Assembly (NCBI GenBank): GCA_019310965.1 | Contig: JAFDDG010000005.1 | Coordinates: 16,227 to 80,226, forward strand | Direction: 5' to 3' | Origin: Deltaproteobacteria bacterium | GTDB lineage: Bacteria; Myxococcota_A; UBA9160; SMWR01 | DNA length: 64,000 bases | Part shown: one piece after another, positions 26,226 through 57,877 of the stretch | How the letters are laid out: every line of letters begins with the position of its first letter | How positions within the stretch are numbered: position 1 is the stretch's first letter | Notes under the pieces: generated by a model | The model's database searches: none | What the model saw: only the letters and a program-made list of their open reading frames with translations | What the model was told of the DNA's origin: nothing | Program-made: the position numbers and the translations under genes

Positions 26226-26234
26226 GCCCGCTCG

Positions 26235-26895: not shown

Positions 26896-28263
26896 TCAAG
26901 TCTGGCGGAAGCGCCGCTGGCTGTGCTCCTGGCGCACGCGAACTTGCTGCCGGCGCCCCTCGGGCGCGACGAGCGCGGTATCGGGCGGCAGGTGATCGCG
27001 GATCTCGGACAGCGCCACGACCTGGAACTTCAACTCGGGGAGTTCGTCGGGTACCTCGTGGTAGGCCCAGCGCTGGCTCAGCATGCCCTCGCGGTGACCG
27101 GTGGTGTCGAGCCAGTTGTTCACTCCGGGGTCGGCGTGGGCGACCACGTAGCGCACCTTGCCGTCCGCGTCTGCGCGGGCCTGGAGGTTGTTCAAGCTCG
27201 TCACGTAGTTCGCGTAGTCGAATGACTCGCCCCAGATGTTGCAGAGGTTGAAGCCGGTGTAGAGCGGCGTCACCGGGATCGTCTGCTCGATGATGAGCGC
27301 CTGGTCCTCCTCGAGCTGGTACAGGCCGCCGGCGTAGATGTTGGTCGCCTGTGCGGCGCCGACCGTCGCCGAAGGGGCACTCGGCTCGATGGACACGTTG
27401 TTCTCCGCGGGGAAGGCGTAGTCCGTGACGATCGGGCTGTTGCGATAGCCGTTGAGGATCGTGGCAAAGAAGTCGTTCCAGAAGCGCATCTGGTGGTTCA
27501 CGATCTCGCCGGTGCGCCGCAGCTTCGCGGCGGCGTCCTCCGGGGTGATGGGTGCGAGAGGGGCGCCGATCTTGTCGAGATTCACGATCTCGAGCTCCAC
27601 CGTTCGCTCGTTCTCCCAGTCGCAGAAGAGCTGCCGACAGATGAGATAGCGGCAGGTCTGCTCCTGGCCGCCGGGCGAGGTCGTCTTCGTCGCCAGGAAA
27701 TTTCCCGTGTATTCCGCCGGTCTCTCGGGAGCAACCAGGATCTCGAAGCTGCCGTCCGCTTCGAGCTGCAGATCCTGGGAGTCGAGCGAGCCGGCGTTGT
27801 TCGTCACCTCCGGCACCAGCTCCGCGATGCTCCCGCTATCGCCGGTGTAGTGGGTGACGCCGGTGAAGATCACGTACCACGGAGCGCACGGCGCGATAGG
27901 CGATCCTCCCCGCCAGTGACGCGTGTCCAGCGCCTTGCCCCGGATGCGGTAGCTCTGGTTGCCGTCGATCGGAGCGCTCAGGTAGAGATTGTCCGCGTTG
28001 TCCCAAGTCGATTTGGCGTGCGGTGGGATGGCGTGCTTGAAGTAGGGGAAGTCGGTGTCCTCGGCGAACGCCCGCTCTACCGCGCTGCATACGTACCCCA
28101 TCATGTAGCGGTAGCCCTCGGCCAGGTTGCGGTCTGTGGGCGGCGGGGGCTTGAGGTCGGGGTTGTCGATGGCGTCTCGCGCAGCAGCGATGCTCGCCAT
28201 CATCTCGTCGAAGGCGGCGCGCAGGTCGCCAACTGCCTTGCCAGGGTCGTCGCGTCGGGTCAT
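26896..28263 (-). CDS. DUF1214-like family protein, paralogue 1 of 3 (family assignment tentative)
   Basis: 455 aa from MTRRDDPG. Shares DN.YL.A.I....Y.I.G, FE/DILV...RP, DPGV.NWLDT.GH.EGML..RW blocks with 36368..37654, and more distantly with 31360..32574. Confidence 0.7.
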   Translation of the reverse strand: MTRRDDPGKAVGDLRAAFDEMMASIAAARDAIDNPDLKPPPPTDRNLAEGYRYMMGYVCSAVERAFAEDTDFPYFKHAIPPHAKSTWDNADNLYLSAPIDGNQSYRIRGKALDTRHWRGGSPIAPCAPWYVIFTGVTHYTGDSGSIAELVPEVTNNAGSLDSQDLQLEADGSFEILVAPERPAEYTGNFLATKTTSPGGQEQTCRYLICRQLFCDWENERTVELEIVNLDKIGAPLAPITPEDAAAKLRRTGEIVNHQMRFWNDFFATILNGYRNSPIVTDYAFPAENNVSIEPSAPSATVGAAQATNIYAGGLYQLEEDQALIIEQTIPVTPLYTGFNLCNIWGESFDYANYVTSLNNLQARADADGKVRYVVAHADPGVNNWLDTTGHREGMLSQRWAYHEVPDELPELKFQVVALSEIRDHLPPDTALVAPEGRRQQVRVRQEHSQRRFRQT

Positions 28264-28322
28264 CGTGCCAGTGTGTCCCACGGAACCCTGCTTCGTCACC
28301 AAGAAACCCACGAGGCCGTGCC

Positions 28323-29450
28323 GTGTTGAAATTCGCTGCGTTCGGAAAGGTGCAGCGGGCGATCTGGCGCAGCTCCGTCGGCTTCGGCCGCAAGCTGCTG
28401 CTTTCGGCGCTCTTCTGCTTCCTGCTCCTGTGGGGCGTGCTGAACGCGATCTGCCTGGGGCTCGATCACGTCCTCTTCCCCGGCTTTCGCAAGGTGAGGG
28501 TGAAACGCCCGGTCTTCATCATCGCCCATCCCCGCAGCGGCACCACGCTCACGCACCGCTTGATGCTGAAGGACCCGGGGCGCTACAGCTGCACGCGCGC
28601 CTACGAATGCCTCCTGCCGTCGATCCTGCAGAAGAAGCTCGTACGCGCGCTGGGGTGGGTCGATCGCAGGCTGCTCGGCGGGCTGCTGCACGATTTCGTG
28701 CGCTCGAAGGAAAGCTCCGCCCTCGGCGATCTCCAGGACATTCACCACTTCTCCTTGCTCGAGCCCGAGGAAGACGAGTTCTTCTACTTCATGACCTTCG
28801 GCTCTGGAGTGAGTCTCTCCCTGTTTCCCTACGTCGATGAATTCCGCGAAGTGATGGCGTACGACTGGATGCCGGAAGCGGCGCAGCGCGAGCACCTCGA
28901 GTACTACCACGGCTGTCTCCAGCGCCAAGTCTACCTGGACGGCGAGGCCAGGGTCTTCTGCAGCAAGAACACGACCACCTTCATTCCGAAGATCGAGCCG
29001 CTGGCCGAGCTGTACCCGGATGCTCGCTTCGTCCACATCGTCCGCAACCCGCTCGAGGTGGCGCCGAGCCTGCTGAGTCTGCTCGCTTCCACCTGGCGGC
29101 AGCTGGGATTTCCCGAGGACGACATCCAACGCGGCTGCGCCGTGATCCACCGCACCAATATGCGGGCCTACGAGCTGGCATTCGAAGCCTTCGATCGCAT
29201 GGATCCGGGCCGCTACTGCATCATCGAGTACAGGGATCTGGTGTCGGCGCCGAAGGCGACGATGCTGAAGGTGTACGAGACACTCGGGATCGAGATGCGT
29301 CCCGCCTACGCGGCGGTACTCGACGAGCTGCAGGAGAAGGCCCGCTCGCATCGCTCCGGGCACGAGTACGGGCTCGAAGAATACGACCTCACCGAGGCCG
29401 GCATCCGCGCCGAGTTGCCCACCGTCTTCGAACGCTACCAGTTCGACTGA
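28323..29450 (+). CDS. Sulfotransferase-family protein with an N-terminal membrane anchor
   Basis: PAPS 5'-phosphosulfate-binding loop HPRSGTT, a later RNPLEV region, and an N-terminal hydrophobic helix (LLLSALFCFLLLWGVL). GTG start. Confidence 0.8.
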   Translation: MLKFAAFGKVQRAIWRSSVGFGRKLLLSALFCFLLLWGVLNAICLGLDHVLFPGFRKVRVKRPVFIIAHPRSGTTLTHRLMLKDPGRYSCTRAYECLLPSILQKKLVRALGWVDRRLLGGLLHDFVRSKESSALGDLQDIHHFSLLEPEEDEFFYFMTFGSGVSLSLFPYVDEFREVMAYDWMPEAAQREHLEYYHGCLQRQVYLDGEARVFCSKNTTTFIPKIEPLAELYPDARFVHIVRNPLEVAPSLLSLLASTWRQLGFPEDDIQRGCAVIHRTNMRAYELAFEAFDRMDPGRYCIIEYRDLVSAPKATMLKVYETLGIEMRPAYAAVLDELQEKARSHRSGHEYGLEEYDLTEAGIRAELPTVFERYQFD

Positions 29451-29454
29451 GCAA

Positions 29455-29519
29455 GCGGGGACGGTGTTGCTTTTTTGCCTTTTTCGAAAAAAAAGGCAAA
29501 AAAGCAACACCGTCCCCGC
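29455..29519. repeat. Perfect 30-bp-stem palindrome (5-nt loop) with an AT-rich core; copy 1 of a repeat family
   Basis: 29455..29484 is the exact reverse complement of 29490..29519 (GCGGGGACGGTGTTGCTTTTTTGCCTTTTT / AAAAAGGCAAAAAAGCAACACCGTCCCCGC). It lies between convergent genes. Confidence 0.95.
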
Positions 29520-29536: not shown

Positions 29537-30295
29537 TCAGTCTTTCCGCAGAAGATAGAAGACGTAGCTGTAGCTACCCCGGCTGCCTTCGAAGATTTCG
29601 ATCTCGTGGTCCTGGTGTCCGATCGCTGCGAGGGCGCGCGGATCGTCGGCGTAACGCGGGCGCAGCTTCGCCGCGCGGGCCTCGATTGGGTCGTAGTAGG
29701 CGCGCCAGTCCGAGTGGGGGAGTGCGAAGTGGTCGAGAACGCGGTAACCCGCTCGCTCGGCGCGTTTGCAGTTCGCCTCGACGTCGGCCATCTCCGGGTA
29801 GTGACCTTGCCAGAATGCCAGGGTCTCGGTCGGCGGCTCGCCGATCCAGCTCAGCTCGGTCACCGCCGCCAGGCCGCCCGGACGCAGCAGCTCGCCCCAG
29901 CGCGCGAGCCCGGCTTCGAAGCCCACGTTGTAGACGGCCCCTTCGCTCCAGATCAGATCGAACGAGCTCGCGGCGAACGGTGGACGAGCCATGTCGCTCT
30001 GCACCAGCGCGATGCGATCGGCGAGCCCCGCGCCTTCGGCGCGCGTGCGCAGTCGCTTCAGGAACGGCGGCAGCAGGTCGAGTGCCGCGATGTGGCCACC
30101 GGTCGCGCGCGCAAGCGCCAGCGTCTGGCGCCCGGGCCCGCAGCCCATGTCGGCGATGCGCGGTGTGCTGGGCAGCTCGGCCAGTGTCTCGAGCGCGCGA
30201 AGTGTCGAGGCATCGCTACCGGGGCCCTGCTGATCGAGATCCCCATTGACCAGCCACCACGCGGGGTGGGCCATGGGGTGAGGCTCGTCAGGCAT
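29537..30295 (-). CDS. Class I SAM-dependent methyltransferase
   Basis: ADMGCGPGRQT (motif I), LIWSEGAVY, LRPGG. The 5' end overlaps the upstream LLM gene stop by 8 nt. Confidence 0.85.
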   Translation of the reverse strand: MPDEPHPMAHPAWWLVNGDLDQQGPGSDASTLRALETLAELPSTPRIADMGCGPGRQTLALARATGGHIAALDLLPPFLKRLRTRAEGAGLADRIALVQSDMARPPFAASSFDLIWSEGAVYNVGFEAGLARWGELLRPGGLAAVTELSWIGEPPTETLAFWQGHYPEMADVEANCKRAERAGYRVLDHFALPHSDWRAYYDPIEARAAKLRPRYADDPRALAAIGHQDHEIEIFEGSRGSYSYVFYLLRKD

Positions 30296-31334
30296 CCCGC
30301 GAGCCCACGAGGTCCGCCATCAGCTCGTAGGCCTCCTCTTGCCGCGCGCGAACCGTGACGCCGGTGTAGGGCATGCTCTCCCAATCGGAGCGCCAGCGCT
30401 CCTTGATGCGTTCCGGTGTGCCGAAGAGCCCGCCCTCGTCGACGTATTCGTCGGGAACCGCCGCGATCGCTTCGTCGCGCTTGCCGGCCTGGAAGAGCTC
30501 GAAGATGCGATCGGCGGCTTCGCCCCAGCCCTCGCGGTGCATGCGCTTCCTGTGAAAGTTGAGCTTCGGGTGACCCATGCCGCCGACATAGAGCGCGATC
30601 CAGGGCTTGCCGGCGGCCAGGGCCGACTTCACGTCGTCGGTGATCTCCACGCTGACGCCGCCCTGGATCTCGAAGTCGCGGAGGCTCTTCCCGCCACCGG
30701 CGCGGCGAAAGCCCTCGTCGAGCCAGCTCATGCATTGTTCGGCGTTTCGCTTGCGAAGCCCGAACGGCAGCCAGCCGTCGGCGATCTCGGCCGTCATGCT
30801 GACGAGCGGCCTGGCGCCGGTGCCGAGCCAGATCTTGGGTGCCCGCTCGTAGTGCAGGATCGATTTGAGGGGCTTGCCCATCTGCGACGAGTCGGGTCCC
30901 CGGTACGGCAGCTGCAGCTCCTTGCCGTCGTGGGTCACCGGGCCCTCGCGCGCGAAGATCTTCTTCATGATCAACGTGGTGTCGCGCAGGCGTTCCTTGG
31001 GGTCGCCCCACGGTACGCCGTACCAGCCCTCGACGATCTGCGGCCCGGATGCGCCGAGGCCGCCGATCACGCGTCCGCCGCCGGCCATCGCGTCGACCGT
31101 GCCGAGTTGCATCGCGGTCATGGTGGGTGTGCGGGCCGCCACCTGAATGACGCCCGTGCCGAGCCGAATGCGCTCGGTGTGGGCGGCGATGTAGGCAAGC
31201 GGTGTAATGGCGTCCGAGCCGTAGGCTTCCGCCGTCCACACCGAGTCGTAGCCGAGCGCTTCGCAGCGCTGGATGCGTTCGATGGGGAGGTCGAAATGCC
31301 GCCCGGAGTACTCGACGGCCAATCCCAACTTCAT
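30288..31334 (-). CDS. LLM-class (luciferase-like) oxidoreductase, probably F420-dependent
   Basis: 348 aa. YDSVWTAEAYGSDAITPLAYIAAHTERIRLGTGV and GLGASGPQIVEGWYGVPW, typical of this family. Confidence 0.85.
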   Translation of the reverse strand: MKLGLAVEYSGRHFDLPIERIQRCEALGYDSVWTAEAYGSDAITPLAYIAAHTERIRLGTGVIQVAARTPTMTAMQLGTVDAMAGGGRVIGGLGASGPQIVEGWYGVPWGDPKERLRDTTLIMKKIFAREGPVTHDGKELQLPYRGPDSSQMGKPLKSILHYERAPKIWLGTGARPLVSMTAEIADGWLPFGLRKRNAEQCMSWLDEGFRRAGGGKSLRDFEIQGGVSVEITDDVKSALAAGKPWIALYVGGMGHPKLNFHRKRMHREGWGEAADRIFELFQAGKRDEAIAAVPDEYVDEGGLFGTPERIKERWRSDWESMPYTGVTVRARQEEAYELMADLVGSRDA

Positions 31335-31359
31335 CGTGGCACTTCTCCGCGGTGCGACA

Positions 31360-32574
31360 TCAGGCGGTGACTTCCCCGCTCGAGATGGCTTCGCTGTCCT
31401 CGAGGCAGGCGAAGCCTTCGGTGCGCAGGCGCCCGAGCGGCACTCGATGGATCGTCACCGTCGGGCCTTCGGTCGGCTTGATCAGGCGCAGGCTGAAGAC
31501 GCCCGTGGTATGTGCGAACGAGTCGATCCAATTGCCGCCGATGCCCGGATCGGCGTCTGCGATCACGGCTCGGACCGAGCCGTCCGATTCGTAGCGAGCG
31601 TTGAACTTCGTGATGTAGCCCTGGCCATCCTCGTACACGTCGAGATTCTCGTGCCAGAGGTTGCAGATCTGAAGGATCCAGTATTCGCACTCCGGGGGAT
31701 TGAATTGCACCACCAGCGCATCCTCGGCGGGCTTCTTCCAGCGTCCGAAACCGTGCAAACGGTCGAGAACGCCGCCGTTGCTCAGATAGGTGCCTTCCGA
31801 GAAGACGATGCGGTTGGGCTCGTCGGGCAGCTTGTTTGCCCACCAGTCCCGTACCTGCTCCGCGTAGCCGAGCACGACCTGTCCCGCCTTGGCCAATCCC
31901 TGGCTCACGTCTTTCGGCCCCACCGGACGCGGCGCCGGTGCATCGAGCCGCTCGATGCGCATCGTGGGCGGAATCTCGGCGGCCCGGTCGTGATGCACGG
32001 TGCGCACCAGTACGCCCACCGAGTCGTCGCGCAGCGCCAACCAGTTGCCGTCTCGCGGCTGCCTGCTCACGATTACGTCGAAATCGCCGTTTGCATCGAA
32101 GTCGATGTCGTCGCTCATCAGAAAAGCGGTGGTGGTGAGATTCGTGGGGTCGAACTCGGCGAGGCCGGCGACGCCACGCTCCGCCCAGTTTCGCGCACCC
32201 AGGTCGTCGGGCTGTGGCGCACTCCAGGCGGCCATCACGAAGTAGGGCAGGGTGCCGCGGTTGCCGCGAATCCGGTATTCGTGCTCTCCGTTGATGAACT
32301 CGCAGAGCAGATGGTCTTGATCCGGGCACTGCACGTTGATGCTCTGACGCCATGGGGCGTCGCGCAGCCGCGGTCGCTCGGGCTCACAGTTCTCCACGAA
32401 GCGTTCGAAGCCGTTGCGTGCGAGGCGGGTGAGGTAGCGGTACCACTCGGCGCGGTCGAGATCCGATGTATCCGCGGGGAATTCTTCGACCATGCGTCCC
32501 GCGACCTTCAGCGTGTCGCAGAAGTCGTCCCAGGCTTTGCCGCTCAACAGGCGACTGGAGGCAGGTTCGGACAT
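31360..32574 (-). CDS. DUF1214-like family protein, paralogue 2 of 3 (most diverged)
   Basis: ATG 32574 (MSEPASS) is preceded by GGAG. The EYRIRGNRG, DFDVIVSRQPRDGNWL and DPGIGGNWID blocks are collinear with the other two paralogues. Confidence 0.7.
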   Translation of the reverse strand: MSEPASSRLLSGKAWDDFCDTLKVAGRMVEEFPADTSDLDRAEWYRYLTRLARNGFERFVENCEPERPRLRDAPWRQSINVQCPDQDHLLCEFINGEHEYRIRGNRGTLPYFVMAAWSAPQPDDLGARNWAERGVAGLAEFDPTNLTTTAFLMSDDIDFDANGDFDVIVSRQPRDGNWLALRDDSVGVLVRTVHHDRAAEIPPTMRIERLDAPAPRPVGPKDVSQGLAKAGQVVLGYAEQVRDWWANKLPDEPNRIVFSEGTYLSNGGVLDRLHGFGRWKKPAEDALVVQFNPPECEYWILQICNLWHENLDVYEDGQGYITKFNARYESDGSVRAVIADADPGIGGNWIDSFAHTTGVFSLRLIKPTEGPTVTIHRVPLGRLRTEGFACLEDSEAISSGEVTA

Positions 32575-32780: not shown

Positions 32781-34259
32781 TCAGCCAATTTCGAGACGCC
32801 CGCCACTTACCTTCGCCTCGCGCCCGCAGACGTCCTCGTCGGCGAGGAGGGCGTCCATCAGCTGCGGCTCGTCGGAGCTGGCCCAGACCCGGGAGCCGTC
32901 TTCGGTGAGCGTGCTGAAGGTGATGCGATGCGGCCCGGCAGGCAGCACATCGACGCTGTAGCTCTCGATGCGGACTCCGCCGGTGTACCCGGTCCGGTAC
33001 GGACGCGTGGGCATGGCCGCGCACGTCTTGCTCACGTCCTCCATCGCCGGGGCGGCCTGCGTGCCGGGATCGCTCGAATAGACGCCGAAGGCGAATTTGG
33101 TGAAGTTGCCGCCCAGCGATCCCACGAGGCCGAGGCTGCCCGGGTCAGCGCGCAATAGCTCGACCATGCGGGCCTTGGCCTGGATGACGTAGTTGCCGAA
33201 CGGTCCGCCGGAGAAGGTGAGCCCCCCGGTGACCGACAGCGGTCGCGTCTCGTCGAGTCCCAGCGAGGCGGCTCCAGCTTCCACGGCGAATGGGAAGCAG
33301 GAGTAGAGGTCGACGTGCGCCAGGTCGCTTGCGTCGGCGCCGGCGAGTTCGAGGACTCGCTGCCCGGCGACGTGCATGCCCGGGTGCTCGTAAAGGTGAC
33401 GGCGCTCGGACAGCAGGGTGGCGTGGTTCATCTGAGTGGCGGCGCGCAGGTAGACGAGCCGCTCCGGCGCGATGCCGAATCGCGTGGCGGTCTCTTCGGA
33501 GCACACGATCAGCGCCGCGCTCTGATCGACCGAGATGTTGGCCGTCATCAACTTCGTGTAGGGATAGGAGACCATGCGATTTGCGCGCGTTGGCGTCGCG
33601 ATCTCTTCGGCCGAGACGTGGCGCTGGATCCAGGCGTGGGGGTTCTTCGCGGCCACGGCGCTGAGCCGCGAGCTGAGTTCCGAGATGTGGCGCCGATGCT
33701 CGGCCGGCGTCGCTCCGCGCTCGGCTCGCAGTGCCGTCTCGCAGAGCGCGAAGCAGACGCTCGGTTTGTTGATGCCGATGTCGACCTCGGCCTGCGAGAA
33801 GGCACCCTCGTAGCTGCCGAAGCGTCGGTCGGGCTCGCCGGGAATCTCCTCGTTCCAGGTGGGCCAATCGCCGGTCTTCTGCAGCTGGCGCTTGCTGTTC
33901 TCGCTCTCGCCCCCGACGATGGCGACCACATCGCGTTGGCCGGCGGCGATCTCGGCGCAGGCCCAGTCGACGAGCACCTGCACGATGTGTCCGCTGACGA
34001 TCCCGATCCCGGTCTCGACGCTGCCGGCGCCGACTCGCTCGGCGAGCAGCGCTGCCGGGTCGCCGTAGTGCCAGGTGCCCTGGGGCACGAGGATCGTGTC
34101 GATCGCCTCGAGCAACCTGGGCGTTCCGGCGTCCGAGGCGGCGTCTCGCAGCGCCTGCTCCATCATTGCGATGGGCTCCCGGGCCTCGCGCGGGTCATCG
34201 ACCCGCTGTAGAAATTGGGCGGCGCCCGCGATGGCAGGGCGGCGAGGGATGGGGGACAT
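32781..34259 (-). CDS. Thiolase-like (SCP-x/acetyl-CoA acetyltransferase-like) protein with a C-terminal extension
   Basis: 492 aa. Thiolase-fold features (NKPSVCFALCE, DLYSCFP, GGPFGNY) but no clear acyl-Cys motif. About 90 aa of extra C-terminal sequence. Confidence 0.7.
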   Translation of the reverse strand: MSPIPRRPAIAGAAQFLQRVDDPREAREPIAMMEQALRDAASDAGTPRLLEAIDTILVPQGTWHYGDPAALLAERVGAGSVETGIGIVSGHIVQVLVDWACAEIAAGQRDVVAIVGGESENSKRQLQKTGDWPTWNEEIPGEPDRRFGSYEGAFSQAEVDIGINKPSVCFALCETALRAERGATPAEHRRHISELSSRLSAVAAKNPHAWIQRHVSAEEIATPTRANRMVSYPYTKLMTANISVDQSAALIVCSEETATRFGIAPERLVYLRAATQMNHATLLSERRHLYEHPGMHVAGQRVLELAGADASDLAHVDLYSCFPFAVEAGAASLGLDETRPLSVTGGLTFSGGPFGNYVIQAKARMVELLRADPGSLGLVGSLGGNFTKFAFGVYSSDPGTQAAPAMEDVSKTCAAMPTRPYRTGYTGGVRIESYSVDVLPAGPHRITFSTLTEDGSRVWASSDEPQLMDALLADEDVCGREAKVSGGRLEIG

Positions 34260-34528
34260 GGCTTCTCCGGTGAAATTGCTGGGGCCGGCAGTTCATAGCA
34301 TCCGCCGCGTCGGTCGGCGCCGCCCGCTGCGGGCTGGGGAACCTCTGCACAAGCGTCCCCGGCGCCCGGTGGATCCGCGCAAAGCGGAGGAACGACGGAT
34401 TGCGCTCCCAGACCCATGCCCTCTCGGTGTTGGAAGTGGGTGGTTCTTTCTTCCATGCCACCGACGGGGCCACCTTCAATTCGGGCCTTTCACCCCGGAG
34501 AAAGATTTCGCTTCAGGGCACGGAGGCG

Positions 34529-36069
34529 TCACGCCTTTGTGCGCAAGCCGGGTACTACGCGAAGGGTGGCCAGGAACGCCCAGGTCGCGACCAGGGCGAA
34601 CGCAACCAGGTGGAACGCACTCGGATTCAGATAGCCACGGTCCGCGATCATCAGAAAGGCCGGAAGGCTCGTCGGCGTATAGAAGAGCAGGAGCTTGACC
34701 TCCTCCCAGCGTCGCAACGCGAGCAAGGAGCCGAGCAATGGCAGAGCGATCCACGCGGTGAACGGAATCTTCAAATAGCTCGAGCCGAATGCAAGGCGAA
34801 CAGGAGTGGTGTGGTTGAAGATCCGCTGGCTGCGCTTCATCAGGATGCTCAAGTACCAGCCCGGCGATTCGCGAATGTCGCCGAGGATCTTGTCCCGCAG
34901 TACCAGCTGATACTCGGGCAGGGTCTCGGGCTTGGTGACATGACCGGTCTTGCCTTCGTTCTTGAAGAACCAGCCGTCGAGTTTGTACTTCGTTCCGTAC
35001 CTCGCGTTGAGGATTGGGATCGCGAATCTATAGGCGGCCTGGTCGGTGTGCTGGTAGCCCTTGTCCTGGCCGAAATCTCCGAGCCCGAACCAGATCGAGT
35101 GCCAGAGCGAGTGATGCAGGTTCCAGCTGCCTTTGTGCGCGCGTCCGCCGGCTGCTTCGACGACTTCTACGGCAGTGTCGATCTTGGCATTCCAGTAGGC
35201 GGACCAGATCTGTCCGGTCGCGAAGGCGACAGACAGGAGCAGCACGACGAGGCCGGCGCGCCGGCGCCACGTGCCCGGCGCCCAAAGACATGCGAGCACG
35301 ACCGACGCGATCAGCAGCGCCGGTTCAGTGCGAACCTCGCGAAAGCTGGCGAGGAAGACTCCCGCGACGCAGGGGATGGCGAAATGCCAGATGCGTGGTC
35401 CTCGGCCCAACAGCAGCGGGGCGCACAGTGCCAGCATCAAGCCGGCGACTTGGATCGGGTACGACCAGACATTGGTCTCGATGTGGATGTGGTAGAGCTG
35501 GAAGGGGTTGGAACCCAGCACCGCGATGAGCGGCAGGGCCAGCACCTTGCGGTGGTTCACGCTCAGCGACACAAAGAGTGCGAGCGACGTGGCGATAGCG
35601 AGCCAGCGATTGAAAGTGAGGGCAGTGGCCCGGGCAGCGCGGCCATCTTCCCAATAGTCGGGATAGAGCAGGAAGAGCTGCCGAAATCGCCTTTGCGCAG
35701 CATCGTGTTGACCCCGCCCACGAGCAGCGGGCGCGGTATCTCCCGCGGCTCGATCAACGCCCGGGCGATGCGGGGGTCATCGACCAACGCATCCTTCGCG
35801 CCCAGAAAGGAAATCGGGAAGTGTCCGGTGTAGTGGTAGAAATAGAACAAGGGCTTGATGGCGTCGATCAACACGCCCACGCCGCCGGGCCTCGCCTTGA
35901 AAGAATGGTCGAGCCGCGCCGCGTCGCGCTCGAAGGCCGTGTGCCAGCCCACGATCAGCGCGCAGCCGGCGACGAGGTAGAGCAGCGTCGCCACGCGACC
36001 GAGATCGAGACAGGCGGGATCGCGGGTCGAGAGCCAGTTCGCGAGTTGTTTGCGATGCCCGGCACTCAT
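34529..36069 (-). pseudogene. Polytopic membrane protein apparently split by a frameshift near 35650..35690 (or two adjacent genes)
   Basis: The N-terminal ORF (ATG 36069 to TGA 35563) and the ORF 34529..35572 overlap. The downstream frame stays open and coding-like for at least 45 codons upstream of its first start codon (FRQLFLLYPDYWEDGRAARATALTFNRWLAIATSLALFV). Confidence 0.5.
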
Positions 36070-45230: not shown

Positions 45231-45827
45231 GTGATGCCGAGAGTCGAACCGTTGACGCGTGGGGAGCTGGCCGAGTTCGAGCCCTTCTTTGCCGGGATCG
45301 AGCAGGCGCTGGGATTCGTGCCCAATAGCCTCTTGACCCTGGGGCGCTCTCCGGCGCTCTTGCGCGCGTTTGCCGGCCTGTCGGGCGCGGTGCTGATGCA
45401 GGGTCAGATCGATCGGGAGCTGAAGCAGCTGGTCGCATTCGTTTCCAGCAATGCCGCCGGCTGTCGTTACTGTCAAGCGCATACCAGCCACTCGGCGGAA
45501 CGCCTCGGCGTCCCCCTCGAGAAGCTCCAGGCCGCATTCGAGTTCGAGACCAGCCCGCTCTTCAGTGCCGCCGAGCGCGCGGCGCTGCAGCTGGCCCAGG
45601 CCGCCGGGCTCGTGCCCAACGCCAGCCGTGACGATCACTTCGTCGAGCTGCGGCGTCACTTCGACGAGACTCAGATCGTCGAGATCGTGTCGGTCATCGC
45701 GCTCTTCGGCTGGCTCAACCGCTGGAACGACACCATGGCGACGGAGCTGGAGAGCGGCCCGCTCGCCTTCGCCGAAGCGAATCTCGCACGCCACGGCTGG
45801 AAGTCGGGGCGGCACGCGGCCGGGTAA
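45231..45827 (+). CDS. AhpD-like/carboxymuconolactone decarboxylase family, peroxidase-related protein
   Basis: CxxC-H motif GCRYCQAH in the expected helix. AAGGAG upstream; ATG 45234 is an equally possible start. Confidence 0.85.
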   Translation: MMPRVEPLTRGELAEFEPFFAGIEQALGFVPNSLLTLGRSPALLRAFAGLSGAVLMQGQIDRELKQLVAFVSSNAAGCRYCQAHTSHSAERLGVPLEKLQAAFEFETSPLFSAAERAALQLAQAAGLVPNASRDDHFVELRRHFDETQIVEIVSVIALFGWLNRWNDTMATELESGPLAFAEANLARHGWKSGRHAAG

Positions 45828-45829
45828 AG

Positions 45830-45918
45830 GGGGACGGTGTTGCCTTCTTGCCTTTTTCCGGACCTGCTCGCTGACACCACCGCTCAGCCGAAAAAGGCAA
45901 GAAGGCAACACCGTCCCC
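45830..45918. repeat. Palindromic repeat copy 2: perfect 29-bp stem, 31-nt loop
   Basis: 45830..45858 is the exact reverse complement of 45890..45918. The arms match copy 1 except for two T-to-C changes that are mirrored in the opposite arm. It lies between convergent genes. Confidence 0.95.
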
Positions 45919-45933
45919 GCTTGCTGCCAACCG

Positions 45934-46272
45934 CTAGTCGAACACCTTCTCGAAGCTCTCTTCGTTGAAGCCGACGAGGAGGGTCTTGCCCCGTCGAATC
46001 GTCGGGGCTCGCAGGTTTCCGGTGGGGCCGAGCATGGCCTCGACCAGATCCTTGCCCGCCTTGCCGCCGGGGAATTCCTTCACCTTCTTGCCCTTGGCGA
46101 CGATCACCTTCGACGCCGCCTTGGCGAGCGCAGCTGCGTCTGCCCTGGCGAGCTTACGGCTCGCCGGGACGACCTCCTTGGCCTCGATGCCTCTGGCGTC
46201 CAGGAACCTGGACGCTCGGGTGCAAGACGTTCAGCCCTTGCGCTCGTAGTACCAGTCGATCGTCTTCGCCAT
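45934..46272 (-). CDS. ArsC/Spx-fold thiol-redox protein with in-frame UGA (probable selenocysteine, U-T-S-C motif)
   Basis: My reverse-complement translation: MAKTIDWYYERKG-[TGA 46231..46233]-TSCTRASRFLDARGIEAKEVV...GNLRAPTIRRGKTLLVGFNEESFEKVFD*. High GC3 continues across the TGA. AGGGGA lies about 7 nt upstream of the ATG. The TGA sits where this family has the first Cys of CxxC. Confidence 0.8.
46196..46215 (-). other. SECIS-like hairpin 15 nt downstream of the in-frame UGA
   Basis: The minus-strand RNA GCGUCCAG-GUUC-CUGGACGC forms a perfect 8-9 bp stem whose apical loop contains GU, comparable to the E. coli fdhF apical GGUC loop. Confidence 0.7.
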
Positions 46273-46315
46273 CGGCAATCCCCTTTGCTTCCGAAGCCCA
46301 ATCTACCCCACTGCG

Positions 46316-46337
46316 AAGAAGGCAACACCGTCCCCGC
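46316..46337. repeat. Solo right-arm copy of the palindromic repeat
   Basis: AAGAAGGCAACACCGTCCCCGC is identical to 45899..45920. No left-arm partner is nearby. Confidence 0.9.
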
Positions 46338-46410
46338 GGCTGCCACGTTGGCGCCTGCCACGCCCGAAAGGGTTTGGCCGCGGTGCGCAAGCGTGCGAAG
46401 CTCGGCCGCC

Positions 46411-47640
46411 GTGAGCACACGACCCTTTCTCGGCTGGCGCGTCGTTGCGGCAGCCTTTACGGCACAGCTGCTCTCGAACGGCTGCACGTTCGCCGTCTTT
46501 GGCGTCTTCGTGGTGCCGCTCAGCCAGGCATTCGATGTGAGTGAGGGGCGCTTCGGCCTAGGCCTCTCGTTCACCTTCCTGGTCATGGGGGCGATGGGGC
46601 CCCTGGTGGGTCGTTGGATCGACCGCGGCCTCGCGCGCCCGCTCATGCTCGCCGGAGTGGTCGCCACCGGCTGCGGCATGCTCGCACTCTCCCGCGCCGC
46701 CGAGCTCTGGCAGCTCGCCTTTGCCTTCTGTGGGATCGTCGGGGTCGGTACGGCGTGCTTCGGCCCGACGCCTTCGATGGGACTGGTGGCCAACTGGTTC
46801 GTGCGCCGCCGTGGCCTGGCGCTCGGCCTTACGGTGGCCGGGGCGACCGTCGCCACCTGGATCGCACCGCCGGTGGCGGCATATCTCATCGACAGCGTCG
46901 GCTGGCGCGCTGCGCTGGCGTGGTTTGGTGCTGGCGCCCTGACGATCGGCATTCCCGTGTTCTGGTTCTGCGTGGTGGGTCGGCCGGAATCCGTCGGGCA
47001 ACGGCCCGATGGCGATGCGCCGCTGGCCGAGGCCGTCGCTTCGCCACCCGCGGAAGAGGTTGCGACCGGCAGCCTGCTGCGCGATGCGAGACTCTGGCTG
47101 CTCTCCGTCGGCTTCGGGCTGGTGTTCACGTCGCCGATCGTCATCGTCCTGGTGCTGGTCCCCTTCGGCGAGCAGCTGGGCTTCTCGCGCCAGAACGCCG
47201 CCTTCTTCTTCTCGGCGATGGCGCCCTTCTCCCTGCTGGGGAAAGTCGTCTTCGGAGCCCTGGCCGATCGCGTGCCCGCGCACCTCGGCATCTGGATCGT
47301 GGTCCTCGGCAGTGCACTCGTCTGGGGGCTGCTCTACGCCAACCCGAGCTACGGCCTCTTCCTTGGTATCGGTGCGCTCTACGGTGTGGCAATCGGGGCG
47401 GCGGGGCCGTTGCAGGGTGTGATCATCGGACGTTGCTTCGGGCGTGCAGCGTTCGGGCGGGTTTACGGCATCGGCGGCCTGGCAACCGTGCCTATCATTG
47501 CCGCGGCGCCGGCGATTGCCGGCGTGTTGCGGGATGCCACGGGCAGCTACAACGCCGTGTTCCTGTTTCAGATCGTCGTCTTGTTGCTGGGCGGGGCGCT
47601 GCTGGCGATGGTGCGCATTCCGAAACATGCCGAGAGCTGA
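46411..47640 (+). CDS. MFS transporter (oxalate/formate antiporter-like subgroup)
   Basis: 12 predicted TM helices. Only the 3' part of the 729-aa track ORF is coding-like. The GTG start at 46411 (or 46393) is uncertain. Confidence 0.8.
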   Translation: MSTRPFLGWRVVAAAFTAQLLSNGCTFAVFGVFVVPLSQAFDVSEGRFGLGLSFTFLVMGAMGPLVGRWIDRGLARPLMLAGVVATGCGMLALSRAAELWQLAFAFCGIVGVGTACFGPTPSMGLVANWFVRRRGLALGLTVAGATVATWIAPPVAAYLIDSVGWRAALAWFGAGALTIGIPVFWFCVVGRPESVGQRPDGDAPLAEAVASPPAEEVATGSLLRDARLWLLSVGFGLVFTSPIVIVLVLVPFGEQLGFSRQNAAFFFSAMAPFSLLGKVVFGALADRVPAHLGIWIVVLGSALVWGLLYANPSYGLFLGIGALYGVAIGAAGPLQGVIIGRCFGRAAFGRVYGIGGLATVPIIAAAPAIAGVLRDATGSYNAVFLFQIVVLLLGGALLAMVRIPKHAES

Positions 47641-50165: not shown

Positions 50166-51314
50166 ATGCCCAACGAAGCCCCTACGCCGTTCGCGATTGC
50201 CATTCCCGATGCAGAGCTGGACGACCTGCGCCGGCGCCTGCGCGCAACGCGCTGGCCGGACGCCGAGCCGGTGGACGATTGGTCCCAGGGCATTCCGCTG
50301 GCCTATCTGCAGGAAGTCTGCACCTACTGGGCGGATGGCTACGACTGGCGCAAGCGCGAGGCGCTGCTGAACCGCCACGCCCAGTTCACGATGCCCGTCG
50401 ACGGCATCGACATCCACTTCGTCCACGTGCGCTCGAGGCATGCCGGCGCGCGGCCGCTGGTGCTCACCCACGGTTGGCCGGGCTCGATCGTCGAGTTCCA
50501 GAAGGTGATCGAGGCGCTCACGGATCCCACTGCGCACAGTGGCGGCGAGGAGGATGCCTTCCACGTCGTGTGTCCGTCGCTGCCTGGCTACGGCTTTTCC
50601 GGCAAGCCCCGCGAGCCCGGCTGGGGTGTCGAGCGCATCGCCGATGCCTGGAGCCAGCTGATGCAGCGCCTCGGTTATTCGCGCTACCTGGCCCAGGGGG
50701 GCGATTGGGGCGCCATGGTCACCACGAATATCGGCATCCGCGATCCGCAACACTGCGCGGCGATCCACCTCAATATGCCGCTCGTGACTCCCGATCCCGA
50801 GACGATGAACGACCTGACCGAGCGCGAGCAGTCGGCGCTGGCGGGCATCCAGCACTACATGGACAAGGATTCGGGGTATTCCAAGCAGCAGAGCACGCGC
50901 CCCCAGAGTCTGGGCTATGGCCTGACGGATTCGCCGGCGGGGCAGGCGGCCTGGATTCTCGAGAAGTTCTGGAGCTGGACCGATTGCGACGGCCATCCGG
51001 AGAACGTGCTCAGCCGCGACGAGCTGCTCGACAATGTCATGCTCTACTGGCTGCCGGGCAACGCCGCCTCGTCGGCACGCTTGTACTGGGAGAGCTTCGG
51101 CAGCCCGACGCTCGAAGCTCCGAAGGTGCCGGTGGGCTGCAGCATCTTCCCCAAGGAGATCTTCCGCTGCTCGCGCCGCTGGGCAGAGAAGCACTTTGGC
51201 GAGCTCCTGCATTTCAATGAGCTCGACAAGGGCGGCCACTTCGCCGCCTTCGAGTGTCCGGAGGTATTCGTCGACGAAGTGCGCAGCTGCTTCCGGTCGC
51301 TCCAGTCGCTCTAG
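50166..51314 (+). CDS. Epoxide hydrolase (microsomal-EH-like, with EH N-terminal domain)
   Basis: IPDAELDDLRRRL...RWP N-domain, HGWPGS oxyanion motif, GGDWG Asp nucleophile, C-terminal GGHFAAFE. Confidence 0.88.
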   Translation: MPNEAPTPFAIAIPDAELDDLRRRLRATRWPDAEPVDDWSQGIPLAYLQEVCTYWADGYDWRKREALLNRHAQFTMPVDGIDIHFVHVRSRHAGARPLVLTHGWPGSIVEFQKVIEALTDPTAHSGGEEDAFHVVCPSLPGYGFSGKPREPGWGVERIADAWSQLMQRLGYSRYLAQGGDWGAMVTTNIGIRDPQHCAAIHLNMPLVTPDPETMNDLTEREQSALAGIQHYMDKDSGYSKQQSTRPQSLGYGLTDSPAGQAAWILEKFWSWTDCDGHPENVLSRDELLDNVMLYWLPGNAASSARLYWESFGSPTLEAPKVPVGCSIFPKEIFRCSRRWAEKHFGELLHFNELDKGGHFAAFECPEVFVDEVRSCFRSLQSL

Positions 51315-51372
51315 CCGAACACCGCAGCACGGACCGAGGTGCGAGCCCCGCGTTGCGGGTAGACTCGCGCCC

Positions 51373-52839
51373 GTGCGAGTCACCGCCCGAAATGTGCTCG
51401 CGATCGCCACCCTGCTGATCGCCTGTGCCCCCGATGCCGACATGCGCCGGGTGGCGCGCTGTGCCGATTGCAATCTCGTGCTGGTTTCGCTCGATACGCT
51501 GCGCGCCGATCACCTGGGCTCCTACGGTTACCCCCGCGATACGTCGCCGGAGCTCGATGCCTTCGCCGCCAAGGCGCTGCGGTTCTCACAGGCGTTCAGC
51601 ACCGCTCGCAAGACGGCTCCCTCCCATGCGTCGATGTTCACCTCGCTGTATCCGACCGTGCACGGCGTCTTCATGAACGATGTGACGCAGGGCGGCGAGG
51701 GCTCCCACTACCGCCTCGCCCCGGAGGTTCCGAATCTCCCGGAGTTGCTCGCCGAAGCGGGGTTCTTGACGGTCGCCTGGCACGGTGGCGGCAACATGTC
51801 TGCCAGCTATGGCTTTTCTCGCGGATTCTCTCGTTATGTGAAATTCCAGAGCTATCGCGAGCGCGGAAATGTCGCGCCCGTGTCGTACCGCGAGCGCGAA
51901 TGGCGGCCGGCATTTCGTTGGCTCGAGGCCAACGCCGATGAGCGTTTCTTCTTATTCCTCCACACCTACGCGGTCCACGACCCGTATCAACCGCCAGAGC
52001 CGTACTACTCGATGTTCACCGGAGACTATCGGGGGCGGATTCGCGCGGTGCCGAACGACAAGCGGCGTGCCGAACGCTACTGGGCCGCCGTCGACCGCGA
52101 CGACCCCGGCGACATGGCGCACCTGATCGACCTGTACGACGGCGGCATCCGCCATGCCGACGCGCACCTCGTGGGTCCGCTGCTGCGGCAGCTGGAGCGC
52201 CTCGAATTGCTGGATTCCACGATCGTGGTGTTCGTGTCGGACCACGGCGAAGAGTTCATGGAGCACGGATTCATCAGGCACAACCAGCTCTACGACGAGA
52301 TCGTGCGGGTGCCGCTTCTCGTGTATCTGCCACCGCGGGCGACGGGCGGCGTGCCGGTCACTGGAGTGCGGGACGCGCGCGTCAGCCTGCTCGATCTGAC
52401 CCCGACGCTCCTCGAGCTGCTCGGTGTCGATCACGATGCGAGCGTTTTTCAGGGGCGCTCGCTGGCGCCCGTGATCGTTGGGACGGAAGGGGAGGATCGC
52501 TTGGTCTACGCCGAGGGCTTGATGGCCAAGTGGGGCGCTCAGGCGTTGACGGACGACGATCGGGTGCAGAGTGTGCTGCGCGTCGGCGACTACAAGATCT
52601 ACCGCCGTGAGCTGAAGGAGCGCGATCTCTTCGAACTGTTCGACGTCGTGGAGGATCCCGGTGAGCGCACGAACCTGTCGCGGGCGGAACCGGAGGCCCA
52701 GGCCGAAATGCAGGCCCGGATCGAGGCCCTGCAGCGCGAGATCGGGGAGTTCCGCGCGGCCCGTGGCTACCAGGCCGGGGCGCACGCTCACGACGACGCG
52801 TTGGTCGACGAGCTGCGAGCGCTCGGGTACGTCGAATGA
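51373..52839 (+). CDS. Sulfatase-like hydrolase/transferase lipoprotein (alkaline phosphatase superfamily)
   Basis: Lipobox LLIAC after GTG 51373. SLDTLRADH metal site. T-A-P-S-H occupies the position of the sulfatase C/S-x-P-x-R motif. DHGEEF.EHG. Confidence 0.8.
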   Translation: MRVTARNVLAIATLLIACAPDADMRRVARCADCNLVLVSLDTLRADHLGSYGYPRDTSPELDAFAAKALRFSQAFSTARKTAPSHASMFTSLYPTVHGVFMNDVTQGGEGSHYRLAPEVPNLPELLAEAGFLTVAWHGGGNMSASYGFSRGFSRYVKFQSYRERGNVAPVSYREREWRPAFRWLEANADERFFLFLHTYAVHDPYQPPEPYYSMFTGDYRGRIRAVPNDKRRAERYWAAVDRDDPGDMAHLIDLYDGGIRHADAHLVGPLLRQLERLELLDSTIVVFVSDHGEEFMEHGFIRHNQLYDEIVRVPLLVYLPPRATGGVPVTGVRDARVSLLDLTPTLLELLGVDHDASVFQGRSLAPVIVGTEGEDRLVYAEGLMAKWGAQALTDDDRVQSVLRVGDYKIYRRELKERDLFELFDVVEDPGERTNLSRAEPEAQAEMQARIEALQREIGEFRAARGYQAGAHAHDDALVDELRALGYVE

Positions 52840-55184: not shown

Positions 55185-55254
55185 CGCTTGCCTCGCTTCT
55201 TCCCCTTCGTGAGGAATTCACCATGGTGGGGGGCAGGCATCGTATCATCTCGGC

Positions 55255-56424
55255 ATGGATGGACTGTCTCTCGATCCTCGAGCCCTGCTGCAGGAGGCCA
55301 CGAAGCAGACCGGCCTCGACGATTTCGGCGACGAGGGTTTTCGCGAGCCCTTCGAACGCACCTGTGCGGCGCTCGACGGCGAGGCGGGTCTCAACGCGGC
55401 GGGGCGCGGCGCGCAGCGCCAGCGCGTGATCGAACTGCTCACTACTCGCGCCCGGGCGGAGCATTGGTTCGCGAAGCATCCCGAGATTCTCGAGGAGAGC
55501 ATCGTCGCGCCGCTGGTGATCGTGGGTCTTCCCCGCACGGGCACGACGATGCTCCACCGCGTCATCGCCTCGGATCCTAGTTTTGACTGTGCACTCTGGT
55601 ACGAGACCCGCTTTCCCGTGCCTCCGCTCGACTGGGACTGGGCGTCGCCGGACCCGCGCATCGAGCAGGGCAAGCAGGAGGTTGCCCAGACCCTGGAGTT
55701 CGTGCCTGAACTGGCGTCCGTGCACCCCTGGGATGCCTGCCAGCCAGATGAAGAGCTCATGCTGATGGAGCAGTCGTTCCTCACGCAGATGGCCGAGTCC
55801 TATGTCGACATCCCGAAGTTTGGCGCATGGCGGCTCCAGCAGAGTCAACGTCCCTCCTACGCCGTGCTCAAGCGCATGCTGCAGCTCCTCCAATGGCAGC
55901 ACCGCAGGCTCGGCCGCGCCCGGGAGCGTTGGGTGTTGAAAGCGCCGGCGCACATGAAGGACATGGAGCTTCTCTTCGAGACGTTCCCGGATGTGAGCGT
56001 CGTGCAGACCCACCGCGACCCGGTGCAGTCGATCCCCTCGATCTGCAGCATGGTTCACTATGTGTGGCAGCTGGGTGCGGACGCTCCGGATGCGCGGTCC
56101 GCTGGCGAGCAGTGGTCCCGCATCTTCTGCGACAGTGTGAACGCCTGCATGGCGTTCCGCGAGGCGGGCCACGACGATCGTTTTCTCGACATCCAATTCC
56201 TCGATTCTCTGAAGGACCCGATCGGCGCGGTGAATCGCATCTACGCCTTCCTCGGAAAGTCGTTGACGCCGTTTGCGGAAGACCAGATGCGCCAGTGGAC
56301 CGAGGAAAATGCCCGCGAAAAACGACCGCCTCATGACTACACGCTCGCGAAGTTCGGGCTGAGTGAAGAGGGCATCGAGCGAGATTTTGGTTCCTATCGG
56401 GAGCGCTACGTCACGCCGCGCTGA
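55255..56424 (+). CDS. Sulfotransferase-family protein
   Basis: PAPS-binding loop GLPRTGTT, later THRDP region. 389 aa. Sits 34 nt upstream of the WS/DGAT gene on the same strand. Confidence 0.8.
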   Translation: MDGLSLDPRALLQEATKQTGLDDFGDEGFREPFERTCAALDGEAGLNAAGRGAQRQRVIELLTTRARAEHWFAKHPEILEESIVAPLVIVGLPRTGTTMLHRVIASDPSFDCALWYETRFPVPPLDWDWASPDPRIEQGKQEVAQTLEFVPELASVHPWDACQPDEELMLMEQSFLTQMAESYVDIPKFGAWRLQQSQRPSYAVLKRMLQLLQWQHRRLGRARERWVLKAPAHMKDMELLFETFPDVSVVQTHRDPVQSIPSICSMVHYVWQLGADAPDARSAGEQWSRIFCDSVNACMAFREAGHDDRFLDIQFLDSLKDPIGAVNRIYAFLGKSLTPFAEDQMRQWTEENAREKRPPHDYTLAKFGLSEEGIERDFGSYRERYVTPR

Positions 56425-56458
56425 GCGCGGTGACGATGGGAGCAGACGAGGAGACTCG

Positions 56459-57877
56459 GTGCAGCAGCTCGGCGGACTCGATGCGACGTTCCTGAACCTG
56501 GAGACCGGGAGCGCGCCGCTGCACATTGGCAATCTCGCGATCTACGATCAGTCGTCTGCGCCGAATGCGCACGTCACGTTCAAGGGCATCCTGCAGAACC
56601 TGGAATCGCGCCTCCACCTCGCGCGCTGCTTTCGACAACGCCTGGTGGAGGTGCCGTTCGGCCTCGACCATCCGTACTGGATCGAGGACTCCGACTTCGA
56701 CCTCGAGTTCCACGTGCGCCACATCGCCCTGCCGAAGCCCGGCGACTGGCGTCAGCTCTGCATCCAGGCCGCGCGGATCCACGCGCGCCCGCTGGATCTC
56801 GCCAAGCCGCTGTGGGAGATGTACGTGATCGAGGGGCTCGACGGGGTCGAGGGGTTGCCAGAGGGCAGCTTCTCGATCCTGACGAAGATCCACCACGCCG
56901 CCATCGACGGAGTTTCCGGGATCGAGATCGCGGCGGCCATCCACGACCTCGACCCCGCTGCGGTTCCGGCGCCCGCACAAGAAGAGTGGGTGCCGGAGAG
57001 CGCACCGTCGTGGCTCGAGCTGGCTGCGCGAACCACCCTGAACAGCGTGCGTCAGCCCCTGCGCTTTGCACAGGCTCTCGGCGACGTGGCGCCGCCGGCC
57101 CTGCGCAAGCTCTTCGTTTCTCCTCCCGCGTCCGAAGAGCCGGCCGAAGGCGGCGTGCCGCGCACGCGCTTCAACGACAAGGTCACCCCCCATCGCGTCG
57201 TGGAGGGCCGCGCCTTCTCGCTCGCTCAGGTCAAGGCCATTCGCAAGCAGGTGCCGGGCGCCACGGTCAACGACGTGGTGCTCGCGGTGGTGAGTGGTGC
57301 GCTGCGGCACTACCTCGACGCCCACGGCGAGCTGCCGCGCGAGTCGTTGAAAGCCTTCGCGCCGATCTCGGTGCGCACGGAGGCGGAGAAGGGGACGGGC
57401 GGCAACCAGGTGTCGGGCATGTTCGTCGCTCTCCACACCGAGATCGAAGACCCCCTCGAGCGGCTCGCCGCCATCCACAAAGCCACGCGGAGCTCGAAGG
57501 AAACCAGCAACGCAATCGGCGCTCGTTCGCTCACGGATGTCACGCAGTTCCTGCCCGGCGCGCTCGCCGGTGCGGCCGGTCGCCTGGTGGCGAGCACCAG
57601 CCTGATGCACGTGCTGAACCCCGTCGCCAACTGCGTCGTCACCAACATTCCGGGGCCGCAGGTGCCGCTCTACATGACCCAGGCGCGCCTGGTCGCGAAC
57701 TACGGGCTGGGCCTTCCCCTGGACGGCCTCGGGCTCTTTCACGTGGTGTTGAGCTATGCCGGGACGCTGACCGTCACGCTGACCGCCTGCCGCAAGCAGC
57801 TTCCCGACCCGGCGTTCTACGCGGAGTGTCTGGAGCGCTCCTTCGCCGTCTTGCGGCAGGCGGCAGGAGTTGCGTGA
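56459..57877 (+). CDS. WS/DGAT-family acyltransferase, second copy
   Basis: GTG 56459 lies 5 nt after GAGGAG. LDATFL N-terminus, HHAAIDG (HHxxxDG), NIPGP. Confidence 0.85.
   Translation: MQQLGGLDATFLNLETGSAPLHIGNLAIYDQSSAPNAHVTFKGILQNLESRLHLARCFRQRLVEVPFGLDHPYWIEDSDFDLEFHVRHIALPKPGDWRQLCIQAARIHARPLDLAKPLWEMYVIEGLDGVEGLPEGSFSILTKIHHAAIDGVSGIEIAAAIHDLDPAAVPAPAQEEWVPESAPSWLELAARTTLNSVRQPLRFAQALGDVAPPALRKLFVSPPASEEPAEGGVPRTRFNDKVTPHRVVEGRAFSLAQVKAIRKQVPGATVNDVVLAVVSGALRHYLDAHGELPRESLKAFAPISVRTEAEKGTGGNQVSGMFVALHTEIEDPLERLAAIHKATRSSKETSNAIGARSLTDVTQFLPGALAGAAGRLVASTSLMHVLNPVANCVVTNIPGPQVPLYMTQARLVANYGLGLPLDGLGLFHVVLSYAGTLTVTLTACRKQLPDPAFYAECLERSFAVLRQAAGVA

Follow-up and report, generated by a model that had tools for sequence, protein, structure and literature searches.

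The locus that we analysed lies on the minus strand of the window, by which we mean the whole 64-kb stretch of DNA under study, between an AhpD-like gene and an MFS gene. The reverse complement of 46272..45934 begins ATG GCG AAG, runs through AAG GGC TGA ACG TCT TGC and ends TTC GAC TAG. It translates as MAKTIDWYYERKG, a stop, and then TSCTRASRFLDARGIEAKEVVPASRKL...GNLRAPTIRRGKTLLVGFNEESFEKVFD (TSCTRASRFLD...EKVFD) before the terminal stop. There are 112 sense positions in this frame; its sole internal stop is the TGA at codon 14, and the terminal TAG occupies 45936..45934. The features of the locus are as follows.

46272..45934, minus strand: predicted complete coding sequence of an ArsC/Spx-like selenoprotein of 112 residues with Sec14 and Cys17, identified from the frame, a match to the family model NF041106 and 80 related loci that are alike
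46233..46231, minus strand: in-frame UGA, predicted to be read as selenocysteine at the first position of a U-T-S-C redox motif; this column is TGA in 80/80 related loci
46272..46270, minus strand: start codon ATG, read from the sequence
46284..46279, minus strand: Shine-Dalgarno-like AGGGGA, 6 nt 5' of the ATG, read from the sequence
46215..46196, minus strand: candidate bacterial SECIS hairpin, with stem arms 46215..46208 (GCGUCCAG) and 46203..46196 (CUGGACGC) and apical loop GUUC at 46207..46204
45830..45918, no strand assigned: REP-like palindrome with 29-bp perfect arms, directly downstream of the gene and between convergent genes
46316..46337, minus strand: half copy of the REP-like repeat that matches 45899..45920 exactly over 22 nt as a direct repeat and lies 44-66 nt upstream of the ATG

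With U written for the UGA codon, G-U-T-S-C makes up residues 13-17 of the window protein. The initial annotation had described a 112-codon minus-strand frame, broken by one TGA and preceded by the Shine-Dalgarno-like AGGGGA, and each of these elements was re-read as stated. It had also noted that G/C-rich third positions continue past the TGA, and this too was borne out, GC3 being 1.00 over the 13 codons 5' of the TGA and 0.86 on its 3' side. When the whole window was scanned for in-frame TGAs flanked on either side by coding-like GC3, two sites were returned, 46233..46231 and 43973. The TGA at 43973 was considered as a second recoded site and rejected, being an ordinary stop between two ABC permease genes, and GC3 continuity pointed to no recoded TGA in the window besides that of the selenoprotein frame.

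A protein search with the window sequence, run with U written as C, recovered 4302 homologues, and the best matches were of three kinds: full-length proteins with Cys at the Sec column, full-length proteins with Trp there, and calls of 78-98 residues that start past the column. The shorter calls form the large majority of these best matches; they start just past the Sec column, many of them with MSCTRAS. Cys was found at the column in P0001, P0013, P0026, P0041 and P0053, and true Cys codons, TGT and TGC, are present in the DNA of the related loci L081 and L082. In a 50%-identity representative library 346 clusters matched at E <= 1e-10; among the best 150 of these the Sec column was CxxC in 43, 'W' in 11 (TGA where checked, in L083) and another motif in two (S-x-x-C, C-x-x-S), while 94 proteins start past the column, and in 26 of these the start is the very next residue.

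Relatives are encoded at 594 loci in a scan of one genome per species, and the 80 best of these were retrieved for comparison. They come from metagenome-assembled genomes of Myxococcota ('Deltaproteobacteria'), Acidobacteriota, Binatia, Gammaproteobacteria, Pseudomonadales and others; the top identity to any retrieved species representative was 80-81%, so that the window's own species is absent from the set. It can be seen that TGA occupies the identical column in all 80 retrieved loci, where it is preceded by a conserved (I/V)-D-W-Y-Y-H-R-K-G and followed by T-S-C-T-R-A-S-K-F-L-D. Two checks had been proposed at the outset, namely whether homologues carry Cys or Sec in the TGA column and whether sequence downstream of the TGA is conserved in related genomes. 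The first returned Cys or TGA (CxxC in 43/150 clusters, TGA at 80/80 loci), and in the second the motif past the TGA was found to be kept. On these alignments, we conclude that the alternation of Sec and Cys in one column amid conserved coding sequence is the classical signature of a selenoprotein. One Marinacidobacterales chromosome (OZ253507.1) carries two copies of the gene, L020 and L030, at ~9.97 Mb and ~0.37 Mb, which are identical to one another in protein, SECIS region and displayed upstream sequence.

The hairpin has a perfect 8-bp stem, with 15 nt separating the UGA from the stem and 23 nt separating it from the loop. Bacterial SECIS elements, as defined by a published consensus (PMC13188914, Fig. 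2 legend), have an apical loop of 3-9 nt, a stem of 4-16 bp, a folding energy <= -7.5 kcal/mol, a G in the first two loop positions that is usually followed by G or U, and a UGA-to-loop distance of 16-37 nt. The window hairpin, with its 4-nt loop starting GU, its 8-bp stem, its distance of 23 nt and an energy of -13.8 kcal/mol when folded in isolation, passes on every count, and the energy limit is passed by 72 of the 81 homologues. Tested against shuffled sequences, the 71-nt context of the hairpin in the window sequence alone gave z = -1.36, which is not statistically unusual, and an Rfam scan of 45700..46500 at E <= 10 matched no SECIS family. The sole Rfam matches were plant miRNA models falling on the palindrome at 45825..45925, and we regarded these as spurious. 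Judged by folding, the hairpin signal is weak from the window alone, and it rises above chance only through other genomes.

We aligned 81 sequences from the TGA to +60 nt; in this alignment columns 19-26 pair with columns 31-38. The helix is paired in 90.9% of cells, as against 24-43% in controls that shift the 3' arm by 1-3 columns, and compensatory changes are present at three of the eight stem pairs: pair 19-38 changes from GC to UA in four sequences, pair 21-36 from GC to CG, AU or UG, and at pair 26-31 there are 27 sequences with AU and 10 with GC. The loop GUU is invariant. Much of the hairpin is likewise invariant rather than covarying, and as it overlaps conserved codons, part of its conservation is at the level of protein. 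The third codon positions are informative in this respect, since they are frozen within the hairpin but free in a control motif, LGPTGNLRAP, which is the best conserved of the protein and has invariant amino acids: third-position entropy is 0 bits at hairpin codons +7, +8 and +10, but 1.2-1.9 bits at the four- and six-fold degenerate sites of the control. The Ser at +7 is TCC in 74/74 sequences, whereas AGC, TCT or TCG occurs in the other conserved Ser columns; the Lys at +8 is always AAG, every Leu or Met codon at +10 is xTG, and for the Arg at +5 CGA, a codon otherwise rare, is used in 53/68 sequences. The constraint on the hairpin therefore acts on RNA. The element that the initial annotation had pointed to, a hairpin 15 nt past the TGA with GU in its apical loop, is present and is kept among the homologues with compensatory changes.

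The hairpins of the two loci with true Cys codons were also inspected. L081 (154-492) keeps the 8-bp stem and has the otherwise invariant loop G changed to A; in L082 (601-942) a D-to-N change breaks the stem, and the folding energy is -4.0 kcal/mol. From their sequences these look like recent Sec-to-Cys conversions accompanied by decay of the SECIS element, an anecdotal observation with n=2 that nevertheless goes in the direction expected.

When the window protein was compared with family models, again with U written as C, residues 5-107 matched positions 1-107 of the 107-position NCBIfam model NF041106, 'ArsC family (seleno)protein', with 115 bits against a cutoff of 85 (E = 2.3e-33). It resembles members of this family in having a UxxC motif, a single Sec, ~110 residues, Sec/Cys alternation at the same column and a SECIS element directly downstream, and differs from them in nothing material; the window gene is one more member. 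The Pfam ArsC family, PF03960, aligned from one end to the other, residues 9-109 against model positions 1-78 of 79, with 18.9 bits, below the gathering threshold of 24 (E = 0.002), so that by Pfam's own measure the sequence is that of a divergent ArsC relative. Pfam Glutaredoxin likewise scored 17.7 bits, below its threshold of 22.9, and TIGR01617 (Spx/MgsR) 28.2 bits, below its cutoff of 75, while TIGR00014 (ArsC proper) gave no match to the window protein at E <= 1.

Among proteins of solved structure the nearest relative is Spx. The family profile, searched against PDB sequences, had Spx 1z3e_A as its top match (E = 7e-6), with the U column falling on Cys10 of the Spx C10-T-S-C13 switch, so that Spx C-T-S-C aligns with U-T-S-C in the window protein, and with G-x-L-R-x-P falling on G-L-L-R-R-P. 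Besides this G-x-L-R-x-P the two have V-G-(F/Y)-N-E-(D/E) in common. The structure that we modelled was that of the 73%-identical Cys homologue P0001, and the AlphaFold model (pLDDT 92.5, pTM 0.85) shows the order beta-alpha-beta, helix plus beta-hairpin, alpha-beta-beta-alpha. The top PDB matches of this model in Foldseek were Spx 6gho_A (E = 4.7e-4, TM 0.56), 3gkx, YffB 1rw1 and ArsC 3f0i (TM 0.58), the TM scores for Spx, ArsC-related, YffB and ArsC structures being moderate (0.5-0.58); glutaredoxins and NrdH followed. In the P0001 model, residues 43-80 separate the halves of the thioredoxin-like core and consist of a helix, a beta-hairpin (55-60 and 63-68) and then another, short helix. The TM scores of around 0.55 are probably modest because a beta-hairpin insert is being compared with the all-helical subdomain of Spx and ArsC. 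By this model the window protein is a compact, divergent member of the ArsC/Spx/YffB thioredoxin-like superfamily. The initial proposal of an ArsC/Spx thioredoxin-fold selenoprotein with Sec at the first position of UxxC is thus supported by the 80/80 loci, the Cys homologues, the covariation in the hairpin and the NF041106 match.

The known systems that come closest differ from it in several respects. Spx/MgsR proteins (TIGR01617; PDB 1z3e, 6gho), regulators that sense redox state and bind RNA polymerase, have the same thioredoxin-like core, but the window protein is ~20 residues shorter and, scoring below the cutoff, is not a member; in place of the helical subdomain of Spx the window family has a predicted helix and beta-hairpin insert, and whereas Spx is found in Firmicutes, the window family occurs in Myxococcota, Acidobacteriota and Gammaproteobacteria. 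ArsC of the R773 type (TIGR00014), which is coupled to glutaredoxin, has the superfamily fold and an N-terminal catalytic residue in the same position, and Sec forms of it exist. Its motif, however, is CxxS or UxxS with a single Cys or Sec (the UxxS form being 'Arsenate reductase 1' in the GOS (Global Ocean Sampling) survey), whereas that of the window protein is UxxC, and nothing in the neighbourhood of the gene points to arsenic resistance genes. The glutaredoxin-like UXX-star selenoproteins (NF041212, NF041114) are also small thioredoxin-fold proteins with an N-terminal Sec and have weak similarity over beta1-alpha1 (E = 3e-4), but the window protein scores only 21 bits against their cutoff of 66, and they stop shortly past the motif region, with no C-terminal half of the ArsC type.

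From the evidence above we put at about 0.93 the probability that the frame 46272..45934 truly is a gene that decodes Sec and belongs to NF041106. What doubt there is about Sec decoding arises mainly because any Sec machinery of the host would lie outside the 64-kb window: Pfam scans of ~50 of its ORFs found no SelA, SelB or SelD, and ARAGORN found no tRNA gene in it, tRNA-Sec (selC) included. Among the 60 of the 80 related loci that were scanned there was again no tRNA-Sec and just one tRNA-Arg, which is uninformative. The absences from the window would fit a relic, that is, a genuine NF041106 gene left non-functional by the stop at codon 14 in a host that has lost its Sec machinery, and both losses and Sec-to-Cys conversions of ArsC-like selenoproteins are documented (PMC1794560, Table 4). 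A window of 64 kb nevertheless makes up only ~1% of the genome that is typical here, and the absence of sel genes from it accordingly says little. The gene is intact and free of frameshifts, having its ATG, Shine-Dalgarno sequence, perfect 8-bp SECIS stem and invariant loop G. In the Cys-converted relatives L081 and L082, unlike in the window gene, decay of the hairpin has already set in. A relic is therefore very unlikely, and we infer that Sec is actually inserted at this codon in the organism.

Gene callers take the TGA as a stop. The ORF list gives a 57-aa ORF with a GTG start (45934..46107) instead of the full frame, and the nearest relative at NCBI, the metagenome-assembled L084 (GCA_044240405.1, 1099-1436), which is 91% identical over the 81 called residues, is annotated as an 81-aa ORF though its TGA, N-terminus and Shine-Dalgarno sequence are intact. 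Full query coverage is likewise lacking in 109 of the 120 best database homologues, and all 13 that were inspected start past the Sec column. Such calls, like the 78-98-aa homologues in the database, are what would be expected if the TGA were an ordinary stop preceded by an untranslated leader of 13 codons, with the real start downstream, such as the GTG that opens the 57-aa ORF. Those codons are nevertheless conserved as protein across the 80 loci: their Trp, Tyr, Arg and Gly are invariant while third positions vary synonymously, and the column 13 codons 5' of the TGA is a start codon (ATG, GTG or TTG) in 72/79 distinct homologues. Furthermore, the predicted thioredoxin fold needs strand beta1 (residues 5-10) and the first redox residue, and full-length Cys homologues exist. 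An ordinary stop is thus extremely improbable. We conclude that predictions for the family in public protein sets are mostly N-truncated or mistranslated. The initial description of a hidden gene that standard callers would leave unannotated is right in that callers do miss the family, but NCBI maintains the NF041106 model for it.

It is equally far-fetched that a reassigned code or near-cognate read-through leads to the UGA being decoded as Trp, Gly or Cys. At least six database entries do have Trp at the Sec column (P0003, P0006, P0043, P0046, P0090 and P0106), but in P0003, the sole Trp entry for which the DNA was fetched and checked (L083, 169-507), this Trp stands for a TGA that was translated with code 4 or 25, and the homologues with a true sense codon have Cys there, never Trp or Gly. 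Within the window (67% GC) TGA is the normal stop of 28 of the 41 Pfam-supported genes, so the code is standard and reassignment is excluded. A nonsense mutation or sequencing error in a Cys codon is excluded by the TGA in 80/80 independent assemblies together with the conserved hairpin.

For the gene as a Sec-decoding member of NF041106, the course of expression would be as follows. Translation would start at the AUG at 46272, and when the ribosome reached the UGA at 46233..46231, a complex of SelB, GTP and Sec-tRNA(Sec) bound to the hairpin at 46215..46196, 15 nt downstream, would deliver selenocysteine in place of termination. The product would be a compact thioredoxin-fold protein in which Sec14-Thr-Ser-Cys17 spans the region from just before helix 1 into its start, and it would act as a small redox protein that cycles between the selenol/thiol and selenenylsulfide forms. 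By analogy with CxxC and UxxC redoxins, such cycling and an oxidoreductase activity are most likely. In the literature that we searched we found no report of experimental selenium incorporation or activity for any member of the family.

The AhpD-like neighbour, a CMD family gene at 45231..45827, is encoded on the opposite strand to the selenoprotein gene, in convergent orientation; it lies 32 nt past two MacB-type ABC permease genes, on the same strand as these, and if it belongs with anything it belongs to the ABC permease operon. The MFS gene is divergent from the selenoprotein gene. In a tblastn search with nine window neighbours, no AhpD-like or MFS homologue was found within 6 kb of the gene at any of the 80 related loci, and the only hits were five incidental weak matches to other neighbours. 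The clustering of 1004 neighbouring ORFs gave as its largest cluster a generic short-chain dehydrogenase, present at 8/80 loci. We conclude that the selenoprotein gene is a stand-alone unit without a conserved neighbourhood, and genomic context will accordingly not reveal the substrate or role of the family. A thiol/selenol redox module with the AhpD-like neighbour, as had been suggested, does not hold up, as that gene is convergent, adjoins the ABC genes and accompanies the selenoprotein gene at 0/80 loci.

A scan of 45700..46600 for promoter and terminator consensus sequences found nothing. The palindrome at 45830..45918 was not flagged in a simple scan for intrinsic terminators, and that it might act as one is a guess. 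The half copy upstream of the selenoprotein gene leaves this 339-nt gene flanked by exact 22-nt direct repeats at a spacing of 417 nt. The REP-like family has the consensus GCGGGGACGGTGTTGC(C/T)TT(C/T)TTGCCTTTTTC and is genome-specific; there are five matches in the window, where none is expected by chance, and a REP-like 14-mer searched for in the related loci was absent from all of them. The full palindromes, at 45830-45918 and 29457-29517, each lie between a convergent gene pair.

The Pfam content of the window comprises luciferase-like monooxygenases, wax-ester synthases, sulfotransferases, a sulfatase, acyl-CoA enzymes and efflux systems. It is rich in lipid and sulfur-ester metabolism, with three luciferase-like monooxygenases, two WS/DGAT wax-ester synthases, two sulfotransferases and one sulfatase, and it has two HlyD-type efflux systems, one with the MacB ABC transporter and the other with a FUSC (fusaric acid resistance family) protein; these lipid/sulfur-ester and efflux genes lie at 731-2852, 15370-16911, 28155-29450, 30288-31454, 50926-52839 and 55213-57877. 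Three long ORFs with high GC3, at 25074-26234, 32781-34292 and 34529-35776, all on the minus strand, matched no Pfam family at E <= 1e-5.

A broader proposal can be made for the family, although we think it rather unlikely. The NF041106 proteins might be stand-alone selenol redox proteins of distinct function, neither arsenate reductases nor Spx-like regulators, with a helix and beta-hairpin insert of their own, encoded by a gene that travels singly and with a SECIS element that is nearly the same across several phyla; the direct REP-like copies found here could then hint at cassette-like mobility.

The family itself has been recorded before. A 2006 list of selenoproteins from bacterial genomes includes 'ArsC-like' ones (PMC1794560), and the 2008 GOS marine metagenome survey contains 'Arsenate reductase 2, cd03032, UxxC', for which it gives 42 sequences with Sec and 238 homologues with Cys (PMC2398784), in agreement with the earlier remark that ArsC-like selenoproteins had been reported from metagenomes. 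A 2026 review equates this GOS UxxC family with NF041106, 'Arsenate reductase-like protein, UxxC, 1 Sec', and describes the functions of such selenoprotein families as largely uncharacterised (PMC13188914). As the window gene scores above the NF041106 cutoff and the family was reported in 2008, the finding is correct but already known, and it offers the biology nothing new in kind, the family having been known since that survey and its model being curated at NCBI. For annotation it means that a selenoprotein of 112 residues should be called, with a translation exception at codon 14, rather than a fragment of 57-98 residues or a blank. For the organism, the gene marks the host as a probable user of selenocysteine.
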